DNA of 64,000 nucleotides from Planktothrix tepida (GCF_904830955.1 NZ_LR882970.1), one strand, 5' to 3'; shown: positions 43,871 through 55,606, numbered from the stretch's first letter. The notes: a model not told the origin generated them from the sequence alone. A program made the numbers and translations.

Positions 43871-45229
43871 CTAAATGCCTAATCCAAACTCCTTAGCTTC
43901 CGTCAATATCGGGTTAATATCATACCAAAAATGTTGAGCATGATTATATTCAAAAACCCATAAACTTCTGATTAGGGTTTGATATTCAATTTGACCACTC
44001 AACTTTTTAGTCGCTGCTACTTGGCGTAACATTTGCCATTCTTCAGCTTCAATGGCTAAGGTTAATTGATGACGACGTTGTAGAATTACCTCTTCTAAGG
44101 ATTCTCTTGTTAAAGGGGGATCTTCTTTTTGTAAACAGCTATATAACAAAATTAATAAACTCCGAACATGACCGCCACTAATGGTACAAAGACGATCTAA
44201 GGTTTCAGGACTATCAAAAATTGTATCAATTAAAGCTGGATAATCTTTCGCAGCCAGACCTGGAAATGCTCTTGCCATTACCATTTGTCTTAACAATTCA
44301 ATTCCCTCTTGACAAGGTGCGCCATCTTCAAATTTTACCGTCACCATCGGTAAGGTTTTTGGGTCATTCCCAAAACGATTCATCAGTTGTCCTAAATCAT
44401 TAGAAAAAATCAAACCTAAAGGAATGGTATAAACTACATGACAATTGAGTTTATTGAGTTGTTCACCGCGATCAATAAATAAATATTCGGGTTGAAATCT
44501 TCCCGTACTATTGGGGCTATAACTAATCCGATCTAAATTATCAATAATCACCACTAAACCTTGTTTTCCCATCTGTTTTAATTGTTGGATGGAAGGTTCC
44601 AATAATTCTTTATTGATAGCCTCTAAAATATTATTGGTTCGGGGTTCTAAATATTGACGTAATAAAGACCGTAAATCTCGACTATCTTTCGTCTTAGCCG
44701 TAATATTTCCAATCCCTGTAGAGAGGGAAAATTCTCCTTCTGTGTTAGCAGCCAATGTTCCCAGACCGGGGACGTTAATATCTGCTTTTAAGTCAATTTC
44801 TGTATTTAAAACATTAATGACTCCACTTAATAAACTTTTAAATCCTTTCGGTTGTAATTTAATTTTCAAGCTTTCAATACTTTCACTCACTTGACGAGCG
44901 ATCGCTAATAAAATATCGGTAATATCCACATCCCCCATATCTAAATCTTTACTCGATTCAAAATAAACGACATGGAATCCTTCTTTTTGGAGTTGAGCTT
45001 TCAACCTCAATAATTCCGTTGATTTCCCTGAACCTACTGGCCCGGTAAACAGTTGGCAGGTGGGGCGATCAGGGGATAACCGCGTAATTGTTCGTGCAAT
45101 TTGTTCCATGCACTTACCGCCTCGTGCTGGAGAAAAATCAATATAATATTTTTGATCTTCTGGACGTTCAACATCGAGGGTTTCAGCCGGATTAGAAGCT
45201 TTAAAAAAGCGAGATAAATCAAGTTCCAT
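43871..45229 (-). CDS. P-loop ATPase (AAA_16/Arch_ATPase-like)
   Basis: Walker A LFTGPVGSGKSTELL and Walker B GLVVIIDNLD are present. 452 aa. Confidence 0.6.
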   Translation of the reverse strand: MELDLSRFFKASNPAETLDVERPEDQKYYIDFSPARGGKCMEQIARTITRLSPDRPTCQLFTGPVGSGKSTELLRLKAQLQKEGFHVVYFESSKDLDMGDVDITDILLAIARQVSESIESLKIKLQPKGFKSLLSGVINVLNTEIDLKADINVPGLGTLAANTEGEFSLSTGIGNITAKTKDSRDLRSLLRQYLEPRTNNILEAINKELLEPSIQQLKQMGKQGLVVIIDNLDRISYSPNSTGRFQPEYLFIDRGEQLNKLNCHVVYTIPLGLIFSNDLGQLMNRFGNDPKTLPMVTVKFEDGAPCQEGIELLRQMVMARAFPGLAAKDYPALIDTIFDSPETLDRLCTISGGHVRSLLILLYSCLQKEDPPLTRESLEEVILQRRHQLTLAIEAEEWQMLRQVAATKKLSGQIEYQTLIRSLWVFEYNHAQHFWYDINPILTEAKEFGLGI

Positions 45230-45353
45230 TGTTTTCCCTGAGTGATACAGTTAACAGACAATTTTAAATTCCCGATCATCCTTCTTCAAGGAGGGGACTT
45301 TTCTCTTTCTTTCGGAAGATATCCTCCCAATTCCGTACTAAGATTCACTTGAG

Positions 45354-46436
45354 TTAGTGGGCTAACCACCAGCCAAAACTCAAGCCCAGACCGGAGGTAA
45401 TCGCTAAAATTAAAAAGGTGTAAAATCCATTGTAGGACGCAAGTAATTTTTCTCCGGCAACCATTTGCGCCACCGTCCCTGCAACCACAGCGATCGCACC
45501 CCAAGCCGCAATAATCACCTCTGGCTGCATTCGTTGGATCACCCGCATCATCGCTTGTTTCCCGGCGCCGATCCAAGCTCCGATCCATCCTCCTAAGACT
45601 AATCCCAATAAACTTCCGGTTCCCAGTTTCGCCCTAGACCGAAAAATCGCATCTAAAATAATTCCTAACATTAATCCCATTATGGAGCCAAAACCCCCAC
45701 CCACCAAAGAACTTAACCAGTCTCCCTTTTTCGTTCCGGCGATTAACCCAGCAATTGCCGCAATTCCCATGATTGTCAAGAGCCCAATTACCCCTTTAGC
45801 AGGGCTTTCTGAGCCTGCCATCGCCCCTAATCCCAAGCCCACGCCTCCCCAGACTAGGGCGGTAATCATCCCCCCAGCTTCGTTTCCTAACACCCATCCG
45901 GCGATCGCTCCGGCAAAGATTAAGGCCATTAACCAAGGTTGACCGGACTCAGAATCTTCACTCGCCGCGATCGTAACCATGAGCCAACCCACGCTGAGAA
46001 AGACCCAAACCCAGGAAGGAATCTTCAATGTGGTTAAAATCCAGGCAATGATGGCATAGCTGAGAAAGACCCCGGTTAACCAACCCATTGGTAGAGGTGG
46101 GGAAGTTGGGGGCACTTCGACAGGCTTAGTGACCACAGGGGGAGTTGGGGGTACTTCGACAGGCTCAGTAACCACAGGGGGAGTTGGGAGGGTAGGGTAG
46201 GGGCTACTTAAATCTGTTTTTAAGGTTTCGTAGGCGTGGCTAATTTCTTTAAATTTGGCTTCCGCTTCCGCTTGTAAGATAGAATTCTGGGGATAGCGAT
46301 CGGGATGCCAAATCAACGCCTGATGGCGATAGGCTTGTCTGACCTCCTCTAAGGACGCCCCCGGTTCTAGGTTTAAAATTTTGTAGTATTTTTCGATCTC
46401 CACGTTTGAAATCTGTTGATCTTCTTTTATTTTCAC
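45354..46436 (-). CDS. J-domain protein with a Pro-rich tandem-repeat linker and a C-terminal Gly-zipper multi-TM domain
   Basis: The J domain YYKILNLEPGASLEEVRQAYRHQALIWHPDR carries HPD. The repeated PPVVT(E/K)PVEVPPT unit occurs twice. The C-terminal half is hydrophobic and G/A-rich. Confidence 0.7.
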   Translation of the reverse strand: MKIKEDQQISNVEIEKYYKILNLEPGASLEEVRQAYRHQALIWHPDRYPQNSILQAEAEAKFKEISHAYETLKTDLSSPYPTLPTPPVVTEPVEVPPTPPVVTKPVEVPPTSPPLPMGWLTGVFLSYAIIAWILTTLKIPSWVWVFLSVGWLMVTIAASEDSESGQPWLMALIFAGAIAGWVLGNEAGGMITALVWGGVGLGLGAMAGSESPAKGVIGLLTIMGIAAIAGLIAGTKKGDWLSSLVGGGFGSIMGLMLGIILDAIFRSRAKLGTGSLLGLVLGGWIGAWIGAGKQAMMRVIQRMQPEVIIAAWGAIAVVAGTVAQMVAGEKLLASYNGFYTFLILAITSGLGLSFGWWLAH

Positions 46437-49406: not shown

Positions 49407-50948
49407 TCAAGTAGATTTTGTATTAATTATTCGAGATCTATAGCTATCAAAAAGTTCATCAATTTTTTGGGGGTCAGATACAAGTGTTCCCCGTTCATCT
49501 CGAAAGGTGCGATCGCGATCGCCCTTAAAAGAAAGCCAATTAAAACTTGTTGTAACAGCAAATTTTCCATCAGATATGAGGATTTTTGCGTGGGTATCTC
49601 CAAGACGTTTAAGGATAAAATTACCTTGGTACTGATTTGCTAATTTTTCAAGATTTTTCTCAGCTTGAATATCAGATTTTGAATTTTTATCATCGTTTTC
49701 TCCTAAACCGTACCCAATCAAAACTTGTACTCCCCGTTTGAGAAGATTTTCAAACTGTTGAATAAACTTTTTATCCACAGAACTTGCTCGAATCCAAGGA
49801 GAGATAATCATTAAACGTTTTTGACTCTCTTTAAGTGCTTGTTCGAGGATAGGACGGTGTTCGTACATTTCTAGCCATCGCATCGGAACTGAAGCTAGAA
49901 TAGAATCAAGTTGAGCTTGAAGTTCTTTTATTTGCTGTTGTGCTTCTTGAAGCTTTTGATCAAGAATGAGTTTTTCCTGATCATCTTCAGTTTGTTCAAG
50001 AGTATTTTGAGTTGTTTGTATTTTTTCTTCTATTTGAGCTTGAGCAGCAAAAACTTTTTCCTTAATCGCTTCAATTTCTTGTAAAGGAGCTTGAGCAACA
50101 AATTCATATCCTAAAACTGCTTCAGCTAACTTTCGGGGTGCGCTCTCTTTTAGGTTTTCTAATATCTGAAGTTTTTTGATTCCATTAGTACGATCAAAAA
50201 TTTCTTCATGATCATTAGAAATAACATCATCAATCGCAAAAGATACCTGAATATTATCACTATCTTTTGCCTTATAAATCAGCATCAAAGCGGGTTGAAA
50301 AAATATCGACCTGCGCTCAATAGCTTTCAAGGCTAAAAGGTCTCGCTCTTGCTTAACTCTGGCTTTGCTGGCTCCGTCAATCTGGCGAATAATTTTGTCT
50401 ACATCTTTGAGTTTAAGATCGGAAATTTCTGGTGACTTTTTTGGAAAGGGATCAATTTCTATAATGTCTTGATTACGCAAGTCTTTTTGCTTAAGTAAAC
50501 GTGACTCTAACTTTCCGTACCAACGAGGATACCGTAAAAGTCCATCAAAATTGATATCAAATGTTCGCTCTTCTGGAACAATAATTTTAGCCTCGCGGAG
50601 TGTTCCTTCACCTTTTTTCGTCAACTTCCAAACCTGTATCTGAGAGCCATCAGGAGCTATGAGGTCTATATCCTCACTCATCCTTAAATTGATCATTGCA
50701 TCCCTGACAATAGGCAATTCAATGCCAAGAAATCCAGCAATATCCGTTTCAGAGGATAAACCAGCATTAATCGATTTCAAGACATATTCTTCTATTGGTG
50801 GAATTGGTTTATGCAGTTGAGTTAGAGCTTGAACAGTAATTTTATAAACAGGTAAACCGACTTGTTTACAACTCACTAAATCGAAGCCTGTACGATTATT
50901 GTAGCGACGCAGTTCTTCTGGAGAAAAATCGAGATTTTCTAACTTCAT
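49407..50948 (-). CDS. Single-HKD phospholipase-D-family nuclease (MkoB-like), with a ~330-aa N-terminal region and a central coiled coil
   Basis: The C-terminal HKD motif is present as GDTHAKILISDGKFAVTTSFNWLS (HxK(x)4D followed by S/N). The coiled-coil segment spans EKIQTTQNTLEQTEDDQEKLILDQKLQEAQQQIKELQAQL. Confidence 0.7.
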   Translation of the reverse strand: MKLENLDFSPEELRRYNNRTGFDLVSCKQVGLPVYKITVQALTQLHKPIPPIEEYVLKSINAGLSSETDIAGFLGIELPIVRDAMINLRMSEDIDLIAPDGSQIQVWKLTKKGEGTLREAKIIVPEERTFDINFDGLLRYPRWYGKLESRLLKQKDLRNQDIIEIDPFPKKSPEISDLKLKDVDKIIRQIDGASKARVKQERDLLALKAIERRSIFFQPALMLIYKAKDSDNIQVSFAIDDVISNDHEEIFDRTNGIKKLQILENLKESAPRKLAEAVLGYEFVAQAPLQEIEAIKEKVFAAQAQIEEKIQTTQNTLEQTEDDQEKLILDQKLQEAQQQIKELQAQLDSILASVPMRWLEMYEHRPILEQALKESQKRLMIISPWIRASSVDKKFIQQFENLLKRGVQVLIGYGLGENDDKNSKSDIQAEKNLEKLANQYQGNFILKRLGDTHAKILISDGKFAVTTSFNWLSFKGDRDRTFRDERGTLVSDPQKIDELFDSYRSRIINTKST

Positions 50949-50958
50949 ATTTATTTAA

Positions 50959-51321
50959 CTAAATCTCTATTTCGGGTAATAGGTTCATTAATTTAGCAAC
51001 TACTTCAATTAGGACTTCTGGAGGCATTTTACAAGCAAACTCTGCTTGCCTTGCTTGCCAATCAAAGGATTTAATTTGATCGGCTAAAACAACTCCTGAT
51101 ACTGCCAATCCTTCTGGAATTGCTACTTCAAAAGGATAACCTTTTACTCGGCTAGTAATTGGACAGACTAAAGCTAGTCCAACTCGGCGATTATATGTTG
51201 TTTTTGAGATAACAATAGCTGGACGACGACCTGCCTGTTCCCTCCCTAATTGCGGAATAAAGTCAATCCAAATGATATCACCTTGACGGGGAATATACAA
51301 CTGAGGATTATCAGAATTCAT
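50959..51321 (-). CDS. mazF: MazF/PemK-family type II toxin (mRNA interferase)
   Basis: The 120-aa sequence PRQGDIIWIDFIPQLGREQAGRRPAIVIS...LALVCPITS matches the conserved MazF/PemK core. Confidence 0.8.
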   Translation of the reverse strand: MNSDNPQLYIPRQGDIIWIDFIPQLGREQAGRRPAIVISKTTYNRRVGLALVCPITSRVKGYPFEVAIPEGLAVSGVVLADQIKSFDWQARQAEFACKMPPEVLIEVVAKLMNLLPEIEI

Positions 51322-51327
51322 ATATTA

Positions 51328-51537
51328 TTATAACCCAATTTCACTATGAATGCTATCAGGTTTGATTGCTTCTAATAATTGCTTCAATTGACTCTCTCTT
51401 TGAATTAAACAAGGTAATTTAGCAGCAATAATTTCAATTGCTAAATATTCTATTGATTCTTCTTTTATTTCGGCTAGCAAAGAGAGTTGCTCAAAAAGCG
51501 TTTCCGAAATTTCTAATGTTATTTTGTGGTCTTTCAT
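51328..51537 (-). CDS. Putative cognate antitoxin (MazE-like) for the downstream MazF
   Basis: 69-aa acidic protein whose stop lies 6 nt upstream of the MazF start. Confidence 0.5.
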   Translation of the reverse strand: MKDHKITLEISETLFEQLSLLAEIKEESIEYLAIEIIAAKLPCLIQRESQLKQLLEAIKPDSIHSEIGL

Positions 51538-51619
51538 TGAACACCTGCTTATTTCGTAATCTACCAGTTGTAAAATGAGTAATATACAGACTATTTACCC
51601 GATAAAGGCTATACAGGAA

Positions 51620-54600
51620 TTATAACCCAGGCTCAGTTAAATCGCAATTTTCACGGTGACATTCAATATACTCTAAAACTCGGTGTAATGGATTCTCCTG
51701 TGAAGTTCGACAGAAATGGTGATCTCCCACAATTACTAAACCCACTTTACCTCTGGATAAAGCCACATTTAATCGTTCTGCATCACGCAGAAAACCCACT
51801 TTACCTTGTTTGTTAGAACGAGTTACAGAATACACGGCAATATCAGCTTCACGTCCTTGGAACGCATCTACTGTATTACACTCAACTGTTAATGCTTGCC
51901 AATTGTTTAATTCTGAATTAAGCCTACGATTAAGTAATTTTAGCTGTGCTGCATACCCGGTTAAAACAGCCACACTATATTTTTTTTCAGCTTTTACTGC
52001 TGTCTGATTTAGCTGTTTGAGAAACTCAACAATGACGTTTACTTCACAGGGATTGTTAAAGCTAGAATTTACAGACTGTTCATGAGAATTTTTAAGTTTA
52101 CTTGTTGTTAACCAAGTAACGGTTTTTGGTAATATTTTAGCCAGGTCTTTATCGATATCTGTCCTGGCACTTTTGAGTTGACCTTCATAAAAGCATTCAC
52201 TAACTAAATTGCCAATTGGTGCAACCATCCGATGTTGAATCGTTAACATCTTGCGACACCCATCTGGGAGTGTTCTAAGCAGTCGATCAAATAGAGTTTC
52301 TCGAATATCATCTTGAGTCAGTTCGTATTCGTCTAAAAAGTCAGAATTTCTGCTAACTTCATCTTTAAAGGGTGGCAGTTGTTTAGGGTCACCAACCAAT
52401 ATCCAGCGATGAGATCGCGCCATTGGGACTAATACTTCTGTCGCCGTAGCTTTTGAAGCTTCATCAACAATACACAGGTCAAATTCTATGTCTTGAATCT
52501 CTCTAGGAATTCCGATACAAGTCCCAGCTATTACTTGCGATCGCTTAATTAAAGGTATATTGAATTTGTCATTTCGACCAAACTGCTCAAACCATTCTGT
52601 TTGAATTTTTAGCAAGTTTTGTAGCATTTTTGAATCTGAATTATTTTGATCAATGAGTTGATTAATCTGTTCTTGTATCTCCTCAACCGATAATCTCAAA
52701 AGTTGATTGATACTACTTCTAGTTAATTCTTTTAACCGCTTGGCTTTTTCTTTCTGTTGCTGTCGCGCTTCTTTTAACTGCTGACGTAGAATGTTAATTT
52801 CCACTTCAATACTTTGACATTCCTCTAGCTTATCTTTGGGAATATGAGTTTCTAACAATGAATCTGGATTTTCTATGTCGTAATTTATTGCTAGAATTTC
52901 ATCTAAATCCTGTTTCCAGGCATTAACTTCTTCCCTGAAAGTTTCAATTTTTATTCCCAGATTTCTCATTTCTTGAAATAGTGTGGCTATTTCACTGTTA
53001 TGCCCAGAAATACCTCGTTGTGCTGACCAATTATCAATAAATTCCTGTCCTTTAGCGATCGCCGACTCTCTCCATTGTTCCATTTGTTCTTCCAGTAACA
53101 GAGAATGAACATTTTCTGATACCCTTTCATGGTTGCCAATTCGCAACAATTTCAAGTTAGGATCTTTCACTTTAATTCGTTCTAATGCGTTATCTAGTGC
53201 AACATGAGTTTGTGAACTCAGCAAAATTCTAGTCTCAGGTTTTTGATTAAGAATTTGCAGAACAACTTCTGTAATAAATGTTGTTTTTCCTGTCCCTGGT
53301 GGCCCTTGAACAATTAGAAAATCTTCTGTAGAAAGTGCAGCTTTGACAACTTGTTCCTGTGATTCATTCAGAGATTGAATAAACTGCACATCCACTTCTA
53401 AATCAGGAATACGAACTTCTTGGGGATTGACAAGTAATTGGCGAATATCTGAACGGACTCCCCTATCAAATCTAATTGCATCTAGGGCATTTTTTTGTCG
53501 ATTTAGGGAAACCTCAGCAGCACGAGTATCAAAACGTAATTCTCCAGATTGTGGGAGTCTTTCTGATTCTCCATATTTAATATAAAGAGTCAATTTGTCA
53601 CCGATAACTTGCTCAACATCTCCCTCCAAGATGATCGATTCTTTGGCATTTTTCACATAGCGTGGTTGTCCACCTAGATCATCTTCTGGAAGTTCTGATA
53701 ATTCAAAGGTAACGCGATTTCCATGATGAGTAAAGTCTTTGTATTTAATCGGTTTCTCTCTATTTTTTTCCCAATCACCCTTCGCTCTAAGAATATCCCA
53801 CCAAACTTGAAATATTCGTTGCTTTTCTTTCTCATCTTCCTGTTCTTTTAAGTTATCTTCATGCTCTATAACTGCATCCTCTAAATCCCGAATTACATCT
53901 TCTGCTTCATATAAATTCCGTGGCTTTCCAAATCTGAACTCGTAGGGAAGAATCCAAGAACGTTCTCGACGTTGTTCTAATTGCCAGTAAGAAGTAGACC
54001 AAGCATTCAAAATAACTAGGTGCTGTCGTTGGTTTTGATCTATCTTTATATGATATCGATAGGAAATACCATAAATTTCGTAGTGATCTTCACGGGACGC
54101 AGCATCGTTGGTGTCGTCCTTAAATTTAAAGGGACGAATGCCACAACCAGATTCATTATTGATATCTTCAAGGATAAGATTCTTGATCTCAACTTCTGAA
54201 GAAATCTTCAATTCATTCCTAAGTCGTTCTAAGCACCTTGGTGTAAGCTCAATAAAGCAAGGACGTTTTTTAATTTCTCCTGTTTTTGTCTTTCTTTGAA
54301 TAGCATTAATTTCAGCTAACAATACATCTGCATTATGCTGACGCTCTGCGGGGTCTAAGGAAACAGCACGCTCGATTACTTCTACGATTTCAGAGGGTGC
54401 ATTAAACGCTTTTAGAGCGGTGGAAATATTATTATGTTCTGTTAGTTCAATATTAGTTAAACACTTCAAAACCAATACACCAAAACTGAAAACATCGCGG
54501 GTGTAAGTATAGGAACCATCATCAAATTCTGGCGGCGTGAATGTACGCGATACAAAGTCTTTGAGTGTAATATTGGGTTCCAAATATCTTTTAAGCTTAG

Positions 54601-55072
54601 ATATGCCAAAGTCAGCAAGTTTGAGTTTACCGTCAATTCCTACTAAAATATTGCTAGGTTTAATATCCCGGTGTATAATTCCGCGATTATGGGAAAATGC
54701 TAAAGCTTCCAATGTGGGTAAGGCTATTGCTTTCCAGAATGAATCCCAATCTTCCGGGGGAGATTCTTTTAAAAGTGTTGTTAAATCTTTCTCCATCCAC
54801 TCCAGAACCAGAAAATAATTCCCCGTAGTTTCATCCTTTCCAGAATCAAGGAGTTCCACAATTCTAGGGTGTTTTAACTCTTGGAGAGCTAGGGTTTCAC
54901 GTCTGAAGGATTCGGCTAGAAAATCTGCTTCAATTTGTCCATTTTTGAATTCTTTTACCGCAACTAGCCGTTCTTCTTGGTTGTAGTCTCTTGCGCGGTA
55001 GACATCTGCCATTCCACCTGATCGTGGGTTGGGGGATAGAGCATAGCGATCGTTGATGAAGCGAGGTGGCAT
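51620..55072 (-). CDS. Ser/Thr protein kinase fused to a Upf1/DNA2-like SF1 helicase (COG1112-type), MkoA-like
   Basis: The kinase motifs are the VAVKEF lysine, HRDIKPSN catalytic loop, DFG (LADFGISK) and a TPPEF APE-like motif. The helicase motifs are GPPGTGKT, DEAS (CIVDEASKAT), QHRM and VDAFQGREADIAV. 1150 aa. Confidence 0.8.
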   Translation of the reverse strand: MPPRFINDRYALSPNPRSGGMADVYRARDYNQEERLVAVKEFKNGQIEADFLAESFRRETLALQELKHPRIVELLDSGKDETTGNYFLVLEWMEKDLTTLLKESPPEDWDSFWKAIALPTLEALAFSHNRGIIHRDIKPSNILVGIDGKLKLADFGISKLKRYLEPNITLKDFVSRTFTPPEFDDGSYTYTRDVFSFGVLVLKCLTNIELTEHNNISTALKAFNAPSEIVEVIERAVSLDPAERQHNADVLLAEINAIQRKTKTGEIKKRPCFIELTPRCLERLRNELKISSEVEIKNLILEDINNESGCGIRPFKFKDDTNDAASREDHYEIYGISYRYHIKIDQNQRQHLVILNAWSTSYWQLEQRRERSWILPYEFRFGKPRNLYEAEDVIRDLEDAVIEHEDNLKEQEDEKEKQRIFQVWWDILRAKGDWEKNREKPIKYKDFTHHGNRVTFELSELPEDDLGGQPRYVKNAKESIILEGDVEQVIGDKLTLYIKYGESERLPQSGELRFDTRAAEVSLNRQKNALDAIRFDRGVRSDIRQLLVNPQEVRIPDLEVDVQFIQSLNESQEQVVKAALSTEDFLIVQGPPGTGKTTFITEVVLQILNQKPETRILLSSQTHVALDNALERIKVKDPNLKLLRIGNHERVSENVHSLLLEEQMEQWRESAIAKGQEFIDNWSAQRGISGHNSEIATLFQEMRNLGIKIETFREEVNAWKQDLDEILAINYDIENPDSLLETHIPKDKLEECQSIEVEINILRQQLKEARQQQKEKAKRLKELTRSSINQLLRLSVEEIQEQINQLIDQNNSDSKMLQNLLKIQTEWFEQFGRNDKFNIPLIKRSQVIAGTCIGIPREIQDIEFDLCIVDEASKATATEVLVPMARSHRWILVGDPKQLPPFKDEVSRNSDFLDEYELTQDDIRETLFDRLLRTLPDGCRKMLTIQHRMVAPIGNLVSECFYEGQLKSARTDIDKDLAKILPKTVTWLTTSKLKNSHEQSVNSSFNNPCEVNVIVEFLKQLNQTAVKAEKKYSVAVLTGYAAQLKLLNRRLNSELNNWQALTVECNTVDAFQGREADIAVYSVTRSNKQGKVGFLRDAERLNVALSRGKVGLVIVGDHHFCRTSQENPLHRVLEYIECHRENCDLTEPGL

Positions 55073-55210: not shown

Positions 55211-55606
55211 TTGAAAATGAAACGATCTCAAAAACCTTGGCAAATTGCTTGTTTTCTCTATTTTTTGTTGTTATTATTAATTGTAATTACAGCAGATCTA
55301 GGAAATTTACCCTATAGTTTATTAGAACAAATTCCCTATTATGATGTCTATGGACACTTTATTTTATATGGAATTGCCTCTTTTTTAACTCATTTAGCCT
55401 GGGGAGGAAAAAAGATTATCATTTATCCCCTATTTTTTCCCCTAGGGCCATTTGTTTTTGCCCTAGTCACTATCGCAGAAGAAATGATGCAAACTCTTTT
55501 TCCCAGTCGTACCTTTAGTTTACTCGATTTAAGCTCAAGTTTAATTGGGATTATTCTATTTTATTATTTAGCAGAATTATGGATTTTTTATCATAAAAAA
55601 AACTGA
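55211..55606 (+). CDS. VanZ-like family membrane protein
   Basis: 131 aa with four TM segments and a VanZ-like hydrophobic pattern. Confidence 0.55.
   Translation: MKMKRSQKPWQIACFLYFLLLLLIVITADLGNLPYSLLEQIPYYDVYGHFILYGIASFLTHLAWGGKKIIIYPLFFPLGPFVFALVTIAEEMMQTLFPSRTFSLLDLSSSLIGIILFYYLAELWIFYHKKN

Follow-up and report, generated by a model that had tools for sequence, protein, structure and literature searches.

What does a cyanobacterium do with a single protein that joins a Ser/Thr kinase to a Upf1-like helicase? The question is raised by a gene at 51620–55072 on the minus strand of a 64,000-nucleotide stretch of the Planktothrix tepida chromosome (GCF_904830955.1, NZ_LR882970.1), referred to here as the window. 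By sequence comparison the gene is very probably mkoA of a two-gene type I Mokosh anti-phage system, consisting of MkoA and MkoB, on the Planktothrix chromosome. What is new is a cyanobacterial member of a known family.

The Mokosh family combines an RNA helicase (COG1112, Upf1-like) with a PLD nuclease. In type I, the gene for the Upf1-like helicase also bears a Ser/Thr kinase domain and the PLD nuclease is encoded by a separate gene; in Escherichia coli, Mokosh defence against phage is lost when the helicase ATP site or the PLD active site is mutated (Millman et al. 2022, 10.1101/2022.05.11.491447). The window locus has each of the sequence hallmarks of type I: a Upf1-like helicase with an intact ATP site, a Ser/Thr kinase domain, a separate PLD gene with an HKD motif, and an end-to-end match to the MkoA profile. 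Given that match and the published definition of type I, the kinase–helicase fusion is the defining MkoA protein of a defence system already described, and the architecture is not new. A first-pass annotation of the window had called such fusions rare outside defence contexts; the hint at defence was sound, but the rarity that it left unexplained is simply the defining architecture of MkoA.

The kinase–helicase gene

The gene is one unbroken frame of 1150 codons from an ATG, and the N-terminus of the protein (MPPRFINDRY...) lines up with the N-termini of more than 100 homologues. Three Pfam families match the translation far over their gathering (curated) cut-offs – Pkinase at residues 18–233 (E 4e-35), AAA_11 at 568–902 (E 1.5e-45) and AAA_12 at 924–1118 (E 3.6e-46) – and these scores, with the length of the open reading frame (ORF), rule out a chance origin for the frame. 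The PADLOC MkoA profile PDLC03920 aligns residues 4–1145 with positions 5–1107 of its 1112 (E 1.1e-270, 899.5 bits). In sequence searches of the PDB, residues 1–271 match CDK7, StkP and PknB (E 4e-26 to 1e-21), and the rest of the protein matches IGHMBP2, Upf1/Nam7, Dna2, SETX, Sen1 and ZNFX1 (E 1e-36 to 5e-22), with best values of 9e-37 for IGHMBP2, 1e-36 for Upf1/Nam7 and 2e-33 for Dna2. The fusion of a kinase to a DNA2/Upf1-class helicase in 1150 residues, proposed in the first-pass annotation, is thus borne out by the ORF, by all three domain profiles and by the PDB matches. The gene and its parts are as follows.

51620–55072, minus strand: probable mkoA, helicase–kinase of type I Mokosh, 1150 amino acids (ORF; PADLOC MkoA; Pfam Pkinase, AAA_11 and AAA_12)
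54287–55072, minus strand: Hanks-type (PknB-like) Ser/Thr kinase of the RD class, MkoA residues 1–262 (Pfam Pkinase, PDB matches, conservation)
53930–54265, minus strand: folded alpha/beta domain, residues 270–381, with a weak RelE/ParE-like fold and without a sequence family
53762–53914, minus strand: one long helix, residues 387–437, a connector between the alpha/beta domain and the helicase module (AlphaFold secondary structure)
53429–53749, minus strand: beta-barrel (residues 442–514) and stalk helices (517–548), an accessory module of the Upf1/IGHMBP2 1B type ahead of RecA1 (AlphaFold)
51635–53377, minus strand: Upf1-like helicase core of superfamily 1B (SF1B), RecA1 at residues 566–650 and 860–915, RecA2 at 916–1146 (AAA_11/AAA_12, PDB matches, Foldseek)
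52529–53116, minus strand: all-helical insertion of ca. 195 amino acids in RecA1, residues 653–848, where Upf1 has domain 1C (AlphaFold)

The catalytic motifs that had been read as intact in the first-pass annotation are all found in the translation. In the kinase these are RSGGMADVY (residues 17–25), VAVK (37–40), HRDIKPSN (134–141), DFG (154–156) and an APE-like TPPE (179–182); in the helicase they are the Walker A sequence GPPGTGKT (590–597), DEAS (870–873), QHRM (946–949) and, within AAA_12, VDAFQGREAD (1068–1077). Careful alignment could have exposed substituted catalytic residues, but in an alignment of 68 sequences (the window MkoA and 67 full-length translations from genome loci) the key residues of both domains stand unsubstituted. 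None of the 68, which span at least six phyla, departs from K40, E59, H134, R135, D136, N141, D154, D193 or R244; F155 and G156 are close to invariant, and E182, the Glu of the APE-like motif, is kept in 60. In the helicase, the residues checked in motifs I, Ia, II, III, IV, V and VI are likewise identical throughout, among them K596 of Walker A and D870 and E871 of motif II; the one departure is E1075 (66 of 68), and it is conservative.

The activation loop is conserved as well. T169 is identical in all 68 sequences, and position 175 (Ser in the window) holds Ser in 60 of them and Thr in five. The invariance of the HRD arginine makes the domain an RD kinase. RD kinases are usually turned on through phosphorylation of the activation loop, and T169 is the obvious candidate phosphorylation site in MkoA. 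PknA and PknB rank first when the kinase part is compared with the PDB by Foldseek, and the ratio of non-synonymous to synonymous substitution rates (dN/dS) between the window and Planktothrix sp. FACHB-1365 is 0.21 in the kinase domain and 0.14 in the helicase. With its catalytic residues intact the kinase looks catalytically competent, and their invariance, with that of T169, in sequences from at least six phyla speaks for phosphotransfer as an essential part of type I Mokosh.

The one feature of the domain that might suggest otherwise is its Gly-rich loop (R17-S-G19-G20-M21-A22-D-V24), in which the first and third glycines of GxGxxG are replaced, by R17 and A22. The first-pass annotation had called the loop degenerate and thought that ATP handling could be affected; the same replacements, and the lack of a published phenotype for a kinase mutant, would fit a pseudokinase that serves as a scaffold for assembly or for nucleotide sensing. 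The loop is not peculiar to the window gene, however: G19, G20, Ala or Ser at 22 and Val or Ile at 24 are kept throughout the family. A BLASTP alignment of the kinase domain with PknB (33% identity over 211 residues; the PknB sequence used is consistent with the PknB matches in the PDB) pairs it with GFGGMSEV, so that G19-G20-M21-A22-x-V24 falls on the GGMSEV of an active kinase. The loop appears to be the ordinary bacterial GGM(A/S)xV variant, with no sign of impaired ATP binding. Pseudokinases typically lose at least one of the Lys, the HRD Asp and the DFG Asp, which counts against such a reading here, as do the invariant residues and the dN/dS of the domain; that the kinase is a pseudokinase is very unlikely.

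Kinases of this type are known from other defence systems. MkoA residues 3–263 match PD-T4-6 (E 6.5e-42) and Mad6 of the MADS system (E 6.6e-41), both Hanks-type immunity kinases, and Stk2 of Staphylococcus is a Hanks-type kinase in anti-phage immunity. Unlike MkoA, these kinases stand alone or belong to other systems, without a Upf1-like helicase or a PLD partner.

An AlphaFold model of MkoA was built from a 55-sequence alignment (mean predicted local distance difference test score, pLDDT, 75.7). Its activation loop, residues 156–174, is of low confidence, as is usual for unphosphorylated activation loops. The top Foldseek matches in the PDB are SETX, IGHMBP2, Dna2 and Upf1 (E 4e-24 to 1e-19, alignments of ca. 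780–810 columns), and structural alignments with the Upf1 family are at 17–21% identity. MkoA shares with the eukaryotic members of that family (Upf1, IGHMBP2, SETX/Sen1, Dna2, ZNFX1 and MOV10L1) the SF1B core, all of the motifs, and the barrel and stalk; the phmmer alignment to IGHMBP2 begins at ca. residue 506, in the stalk region. It differs from them in having no CH or zinc-finger domains, and in its 195-residue helical insertion in RecA1, its fused kinase and its place in a bacterial operon. The insertion is the most variable part of the protein (mean identity 0.39 over residues 651–835, the lowest of all MkoA regions).

Between the kinase and the helicase, where the first-pass annotation had placed a linker of ca. 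300 residues rich in charged and coiled-coil residues, the model has folded domains with pLDDT mostly 78–90; the long helical or coiled part of MkoA is instead the RecA1 insertion. No Pfam family matches residues 266–566 even at E ≤ 10. Conservation is nevertheless evident at certain positions: W424, L428, K431 and E435 of the long helix are at least 91% conserved, and in the alpha/beta domain only D303, L304, G335, L352, A357, E366, R369 and F379 reach at least 85% across phyla. Residues 270–381 are a conserved module, probably non-catalytic, which may form a docking or sensing surface. An active RNase was considered for this RelE/ParE-like domain and is unsupported, the SYRYH motif of the cyanobacterial proteins not being conserved in other phyla.

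MkoB and the distribution of the gene pair

The first-pass annotation took the kinase–helicase gene alone and missed both its PLD partner, 0.67 kb downstream, and the toxin–antitoxin (TA) pair that lies between them. The partner gene and its catalytic domain are located as follows.

49407–50948, minus strand: mkoB, PLD-family nuclease partner, 513 amino acids (PADLOC MkoB, E 1.7e-89; Pfam PLDc_2)
49527–49844, minus strand: PLD (HKD) catalytic domain, MkoB residues 369–474, H453-x-K455-x4-D460 and N470 (Pfam PLDc_2 at 369–471)

H453, K455, D460 and N470 are each at least 95% conserved among 65 MkoB sequences. The N-terminal 354 residues of MkoB match no Pfam family at E ≤ 10, and a sequence search of the PDB with MkoB gave no match. 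A Gln/Glu-rich helical stretch at ca. 290–355 closes this N-terminal part directly ahead of the PLD domain; a possible contact for it on MkoA is the helical RecA1 insertion (residues 653–848), with which it might pair.

More than 1200 relatives of MkoA were found in the protein database at E ≤ 1e-10. The best 120 of these are nearly all full-length cyanobacterial proteins of ca. 1150 amino acids, and the closest among the relatives listed is that of Planktothrix sp. FACHB-1365 (93% identity). A genome scan, with one genome per species, yielded 80 loci with full-length MkoA matches at 35–83% identity. These are found in Cyanobacteria, Acidobacteriota, Planctomycetota, several classes of Pseudomonadota, Actinomycetes, Bacteroidota, Latescibacterota and Desulfobacterota. 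A tblastn search places mkoB next after mkoA, on the same strand, at 79 of these 80 loci; in the one left over, the contig stops 110 nt past mkoA. When all flanking ORFs of the 80 loci were clustered, no conserved third gene, such as a phosphatase, was found beyond close relatives, and the Mokosh unit is therefore a self-contained gene pair.

Both genes of the window are intact, their three catalytic centres are strictly conserved, and they are under purifying selection, with a dN/dS of 0.19 for mkoA (window against FACHB-1365, both with the TA insert) and 0.04 for mkoB (window against Planktothrix pseudagardhii).

In gene composition and order, in the layout of MkoA (kinase, middle region, COG1112 helicase) and in the single-HKD PLD partner, the locus is the same as type I Mokosh of E. 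coli (Millman et al. 2022). It differs in its host, a filamentous cyanobacterium, and in the mazF TA cassette between the genes, and it is known here from sequence; the proteobacterial homologues found in the genome scan, which are not the tested E. coli proteins, are ca. 36–40% identical to the window MkoA. In type II Mokosh (MkoC, similar to E. coli YjhR) helicase and PLD are fused in one polypeptide without a kinase domain (Millman et al., 10.1101/2022.05.11.491447). Both parts are homologous to those of the window (the MkoC profile matches the C-terminal region of MkoA at E 2e-35 and the PLD domain of MkoB at E 2.5e-20), where they are encoded by separate genes and a kinase domain is added. 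The partnership of helicase and PLD nuclease also parallels the MOV10L1–PLD6 (Zucchini) pair of the piRNA pathway (Cury et al.).

The likeness of MkoA to helicases of RNA metabolism (Upf1, IGHMBP2 and SETX), and its immediate neighbours in the window – housekeeping genes such as polA, a GH116 gene, an ABC transporter and haem genes – could be taken to mean that it is a housekeeping protein of RNA surveillance or signalling, and not an immune one. Against this stand its patchy distribution, with plasmid-borne copies in some species (two of the 80 loci, in Nostoc linckia NIES-25 and Anabaena azotica SJ-1), and its presence, disruption or absence at the same site within one genus. With the constant pairing with a PLD nuclease, the end-to-end match to a defence profile and homologues that are anti-phage by experiment, a housekeeping role is extremely unlikely.

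The nested toxin–antitoxin cassette and the history of the site

The window differs from most Mokosh loci in a 672-nt insert exactly at the mkoA/mkoB junction (window 50949–51619), which is made up of an 82-nt spacer, a gene for a 69-residue protein, mazF, and 10 nt.

51619–51647, minus strand: weak promoter-like TTGCGA-17-TATAAT that overlaps the end of mkoA at its stop codon, shortly ahead of the TA pair (consensus scan, 10/12)
51328–51537, minus strand: ORF of 69 amino acids, putative MazF antitoxin (ORF; position and co-conservation)
50959–51321, minus strand: mazF/pemK-type endoribonuclease toxin gene, 120 amino acids (Pfam PemK_toxin, NCBIfam)

The 69-residue gene precedes mazF by 6 nt, and 10 nt separate the mazF stop from the mkoB start. 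The toxin matches Pfam PemK_toxin (E 1.2e-26) and passes the cut-off of the NCBIfam equivalog NF007386, ‘endoribonuclease MazF’ (125.9 bits against 120). The cassette resembles MazEF type II TA systems in this toxin and in its small upstream gene, in the classical antitoxin–toxin order. It differs from them in that the 69-residue protein has no match to MazE/AbrB (AbrB/SpoVT-type), or to any other family in Pfam or NCBIfam. Its position and co-conservation point to an antitoxin – the gene is always immediately upstream of mazF in the Planktothrix and Hormoscilla loci – and its pattern of beta-strand, helix and helix suggests one of the ribbon-helix-helix type. A word-indexed protein search, which may overstate the rarity of the family, found only 11 clusters of this protein; all of those with a named source are from Planktothrix, and one, from P. 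tepida PCC 9214, is 100% identical to the window antitoxin.

The spacer upstream of the antitoxin gene contains a direct repeat, CTGTATA, twice, 27 nt apart (window 51583–51616, minus strand). It is largely retained in Planktothrix agardhii, as ATGTATA and CTGTACA, and may be an operator for the antitoxin.

Among the 80 loci and FACHB-1365, Planktothrix alone has a TA pair between mkoA and mkoB. The two genes overlap by ATGA, stop on start, in Microcoleus, a signature of translational coupling. Three Hormoscilla loci have a homologous pair just downstream of mkoB (antitoxin 57% and MazF 70–78% identical; L024 12389–12782, L025 12339–12906 and L065 12455–12848); two of these loci have a truncated MazF. 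This recurrent adjacency of a rare antitoxin family to Mokosh may or may not be due to chance.

The order at the site in Planktothrix is GH116, a membrane protein of 131–132 amino acids, the Mokosh/TA locus, and polA. Its state varies between genomes. In the window all four genes are intact. FACHB-1365 has the same four genes, but its mkoB matches to residue 251 only and is followed by unrelated sequence to the end of the contig (L001 10878–11074). P. pseudagardhii has four genes at 97–99% identity, with mkoA split at ca. codon 352 by a 3116-nt insert (L086 1404–4519). The insert carries two DDE transposase genes; an RNA element or group II intron was considered, and Rfam finds none. P. agardhii has the TA pair alone (L082–L085, 6596–7747), and its antitoxin is listed on 272 contigs.

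A base-level alignment of the P. agardhii site is informative about the order of events. Downstream of the TA pair, the mazF stop and the following 10 nt run straight into the final 45 nt of mkoB. Upstream of it is a decayed copy of the last ca. 50 nt of mkoA, including the TATAAT over the mkoA stop. Since remnants of both mko genes flank the TA pair, the ancestral order in Planktothrix is mkoA, TA pair, mkoB, with Mokosh later lost or damaged in several lineages and the TA pair kept. On the strength of these remnants the converse history, in which the TA pair was ancestral and Mokosh was inserted around it, was rejected. Persistence of the TA pair after the loss of Mokosh is what is expected of an autonomous, addictive module. 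The dN/dS of 0.19 between two genomes that both bear the insert also means that mkoA has been under purifying selection after the TA insertion.

The cassette is most likely an independent addictive hitch-hiker, and not a functional component of Mokosh. It is probably now co-transcribed with mkoB, and orientation and short gaps suggest a four-gene operon. A closer relationship was also considered, in which the four genes are one unit and either MazF and its antitoxin are an extra arm of Mokosh, with MazF set free or activated once MkoA senses infection, perhaps by phosphorylation of antitoxin or toxin, or the auto-regulated TA promoter sets the dosage of mkoB. The placement of the pair exactly between mkoA and mkoB, with 10 nt to the mkoB start and no predicted terminator, would fit such a unit, as would the homologous pair right after mkoB in Hormoscilla (two independent placements of so rare an antitoxin by Mokosh look non-random), the continued selection on mkoA after the insertion, and the fact that RNA is the target both of MazF and of the proposed Mokosh mechanism. 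However, 75 of the 80 loci have no TA pair near Mokosh, and P. agardhii keeps the pair with both Mokosh genes gone, which shows it to be self-sufficient. Truncation of MazF in most of the Hormoscilla loci, the frequency with which TA modules land in defence loci, and the possibly overstated rarity of the antitoxin also count against a four-gene unit, which is considered unlikely.

The same insertion could have uncoupled mkoA from mkoB and left a relic, a defence no longer effective whose frames have not yet decayed. The fate of the sister loci is in keeping with this – mkoA disrupted by an insertion sequence at the same site in P. pseudagardhii, mkoB matching in part in FACHB-1365, both genes deleted in P. 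agardhii – and the ATGA overlap of the Microcoleus type is gone in the window. In the window itself, though, neither ORF is shortened and no catalytic residue has been lost, the dN/dS values (mkoA, 0.19 since the insertion; mkoB, 0.04 against P. pseudagardhii) speak of selection, and an mkoB start 10 nt past the mazF stop is compatible with co-translation. A relic is improbable.

The predicted membrane protein of 131 amino acids that is transcribed divergently from mkoA (window 55211–55606, plus strand; a weak VanZ-like match at E 0.2) is kept at the site in all of the Planktothrix genomes, with or without Mokosh, and so is not part of the system. Beyond polA (window 43871–46436, minus strand) are genes for a DnaJ-domain protein of 360 amino acids and a KAP/STAND-type P-loop NTPase of 452 amino acids, the latter with a weak match to PADLOC PDC-S20 (E 1e-6). 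At the same position P. agardhii has, instead, a DNA methylase, an AAA_16 protein and a gene with no more than a faint PPC-domain match. The sites on either side of polA therefore look variable and defence-prone.

Proposed mechanism and significance

As a type I Mokosh system, the locus would work through two proteins. MkoA would be an ATP-driven sensor and motor, whose SF1B core, together with the barrel and stalk of the 1B module, would load onto phage nucleic acid and translocate along it; MkoB, a PLD-family nuclease with a single HKD motif, would be the effector that cuts the target. For the target, RNA or RNA/DNA intermediates were proposed by Millman et al., and the closest solved relatives of MkoA are RNA helicases. 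The PknB-like RD kinase, obligatory in type I, most probably autophosphorylates the invariant T169; MkoB or further proteins of host or phage may be substrates as well. By doing so the kinase would serve either to control activation of the complex or to provide defence with a second arm, based on phosphorylation. In this scheme the substrate of Mokosh, the sequence of steps and the part played by the kinase are presumptive; a coupling of nucleic-acid sensing to phosphorylation signalling is plausible.

A bolder version would make the middle module of MkoA a sensor that docks on the ribosome or mRNA, turn type I Mokosh into a translation-coupled surveillance system in the style of Upf1, and have the MazF TA pair of Planktothrix and Hormoscilla recruited as an RNA-cleaving arm under control of the kinase. 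It is a speculative extension with little likelihood.

Several points weigh against the identification of the locus as a working Mokosh system of this kind. The proposal that Mokosh acts on RNA or RNA/DNA intermediates is itself only a hypothesis (Millman et al., 10.1101/2022.05.11.491447), and in one biochemical survey type I Mokosh could not be purified. The literature searched contains no experiment on this MkoA or on any cyanobacterial Mokosh. For type I in general it reports no test or mutant of the kinase, no substrate and no structure. The TA insertion removed the tight coupling of mkoA and mkoB seen elsewhere, which makes stoichiometric co-expression of MkoA and MkoB uncertain here, and a scan of the region for promoters and terminators gave counts not above those in shuffled sequence. 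Finally, the locus has decayed in sister species, so that Mokosh activity in the window strain is not guaranteed.

The general picture of how such defence systems work is unchanged by the finding, and its main value is one of correct annotation: in the databases MkoA-like proteins, nearly all of them full-length among the best 120, go under no other names than “serine/threonine-protein kinase” or “AAA domain-containing protein”, although this one is the core of a known anti-phage system. Specialists may find use in the invariant catalytic residues and T169 of the kinase, and in the folded, conserved module, without a family assignment, that lies between kinase and helicase. For Planktothrix, the genomes form a natural series at one site – an intact system with a nested TA pair, an mkoA split by an insertion sequence, and a TA pair alone between remnants of Mokosh – which shows defence genes being lost while an addictive TA module persists.

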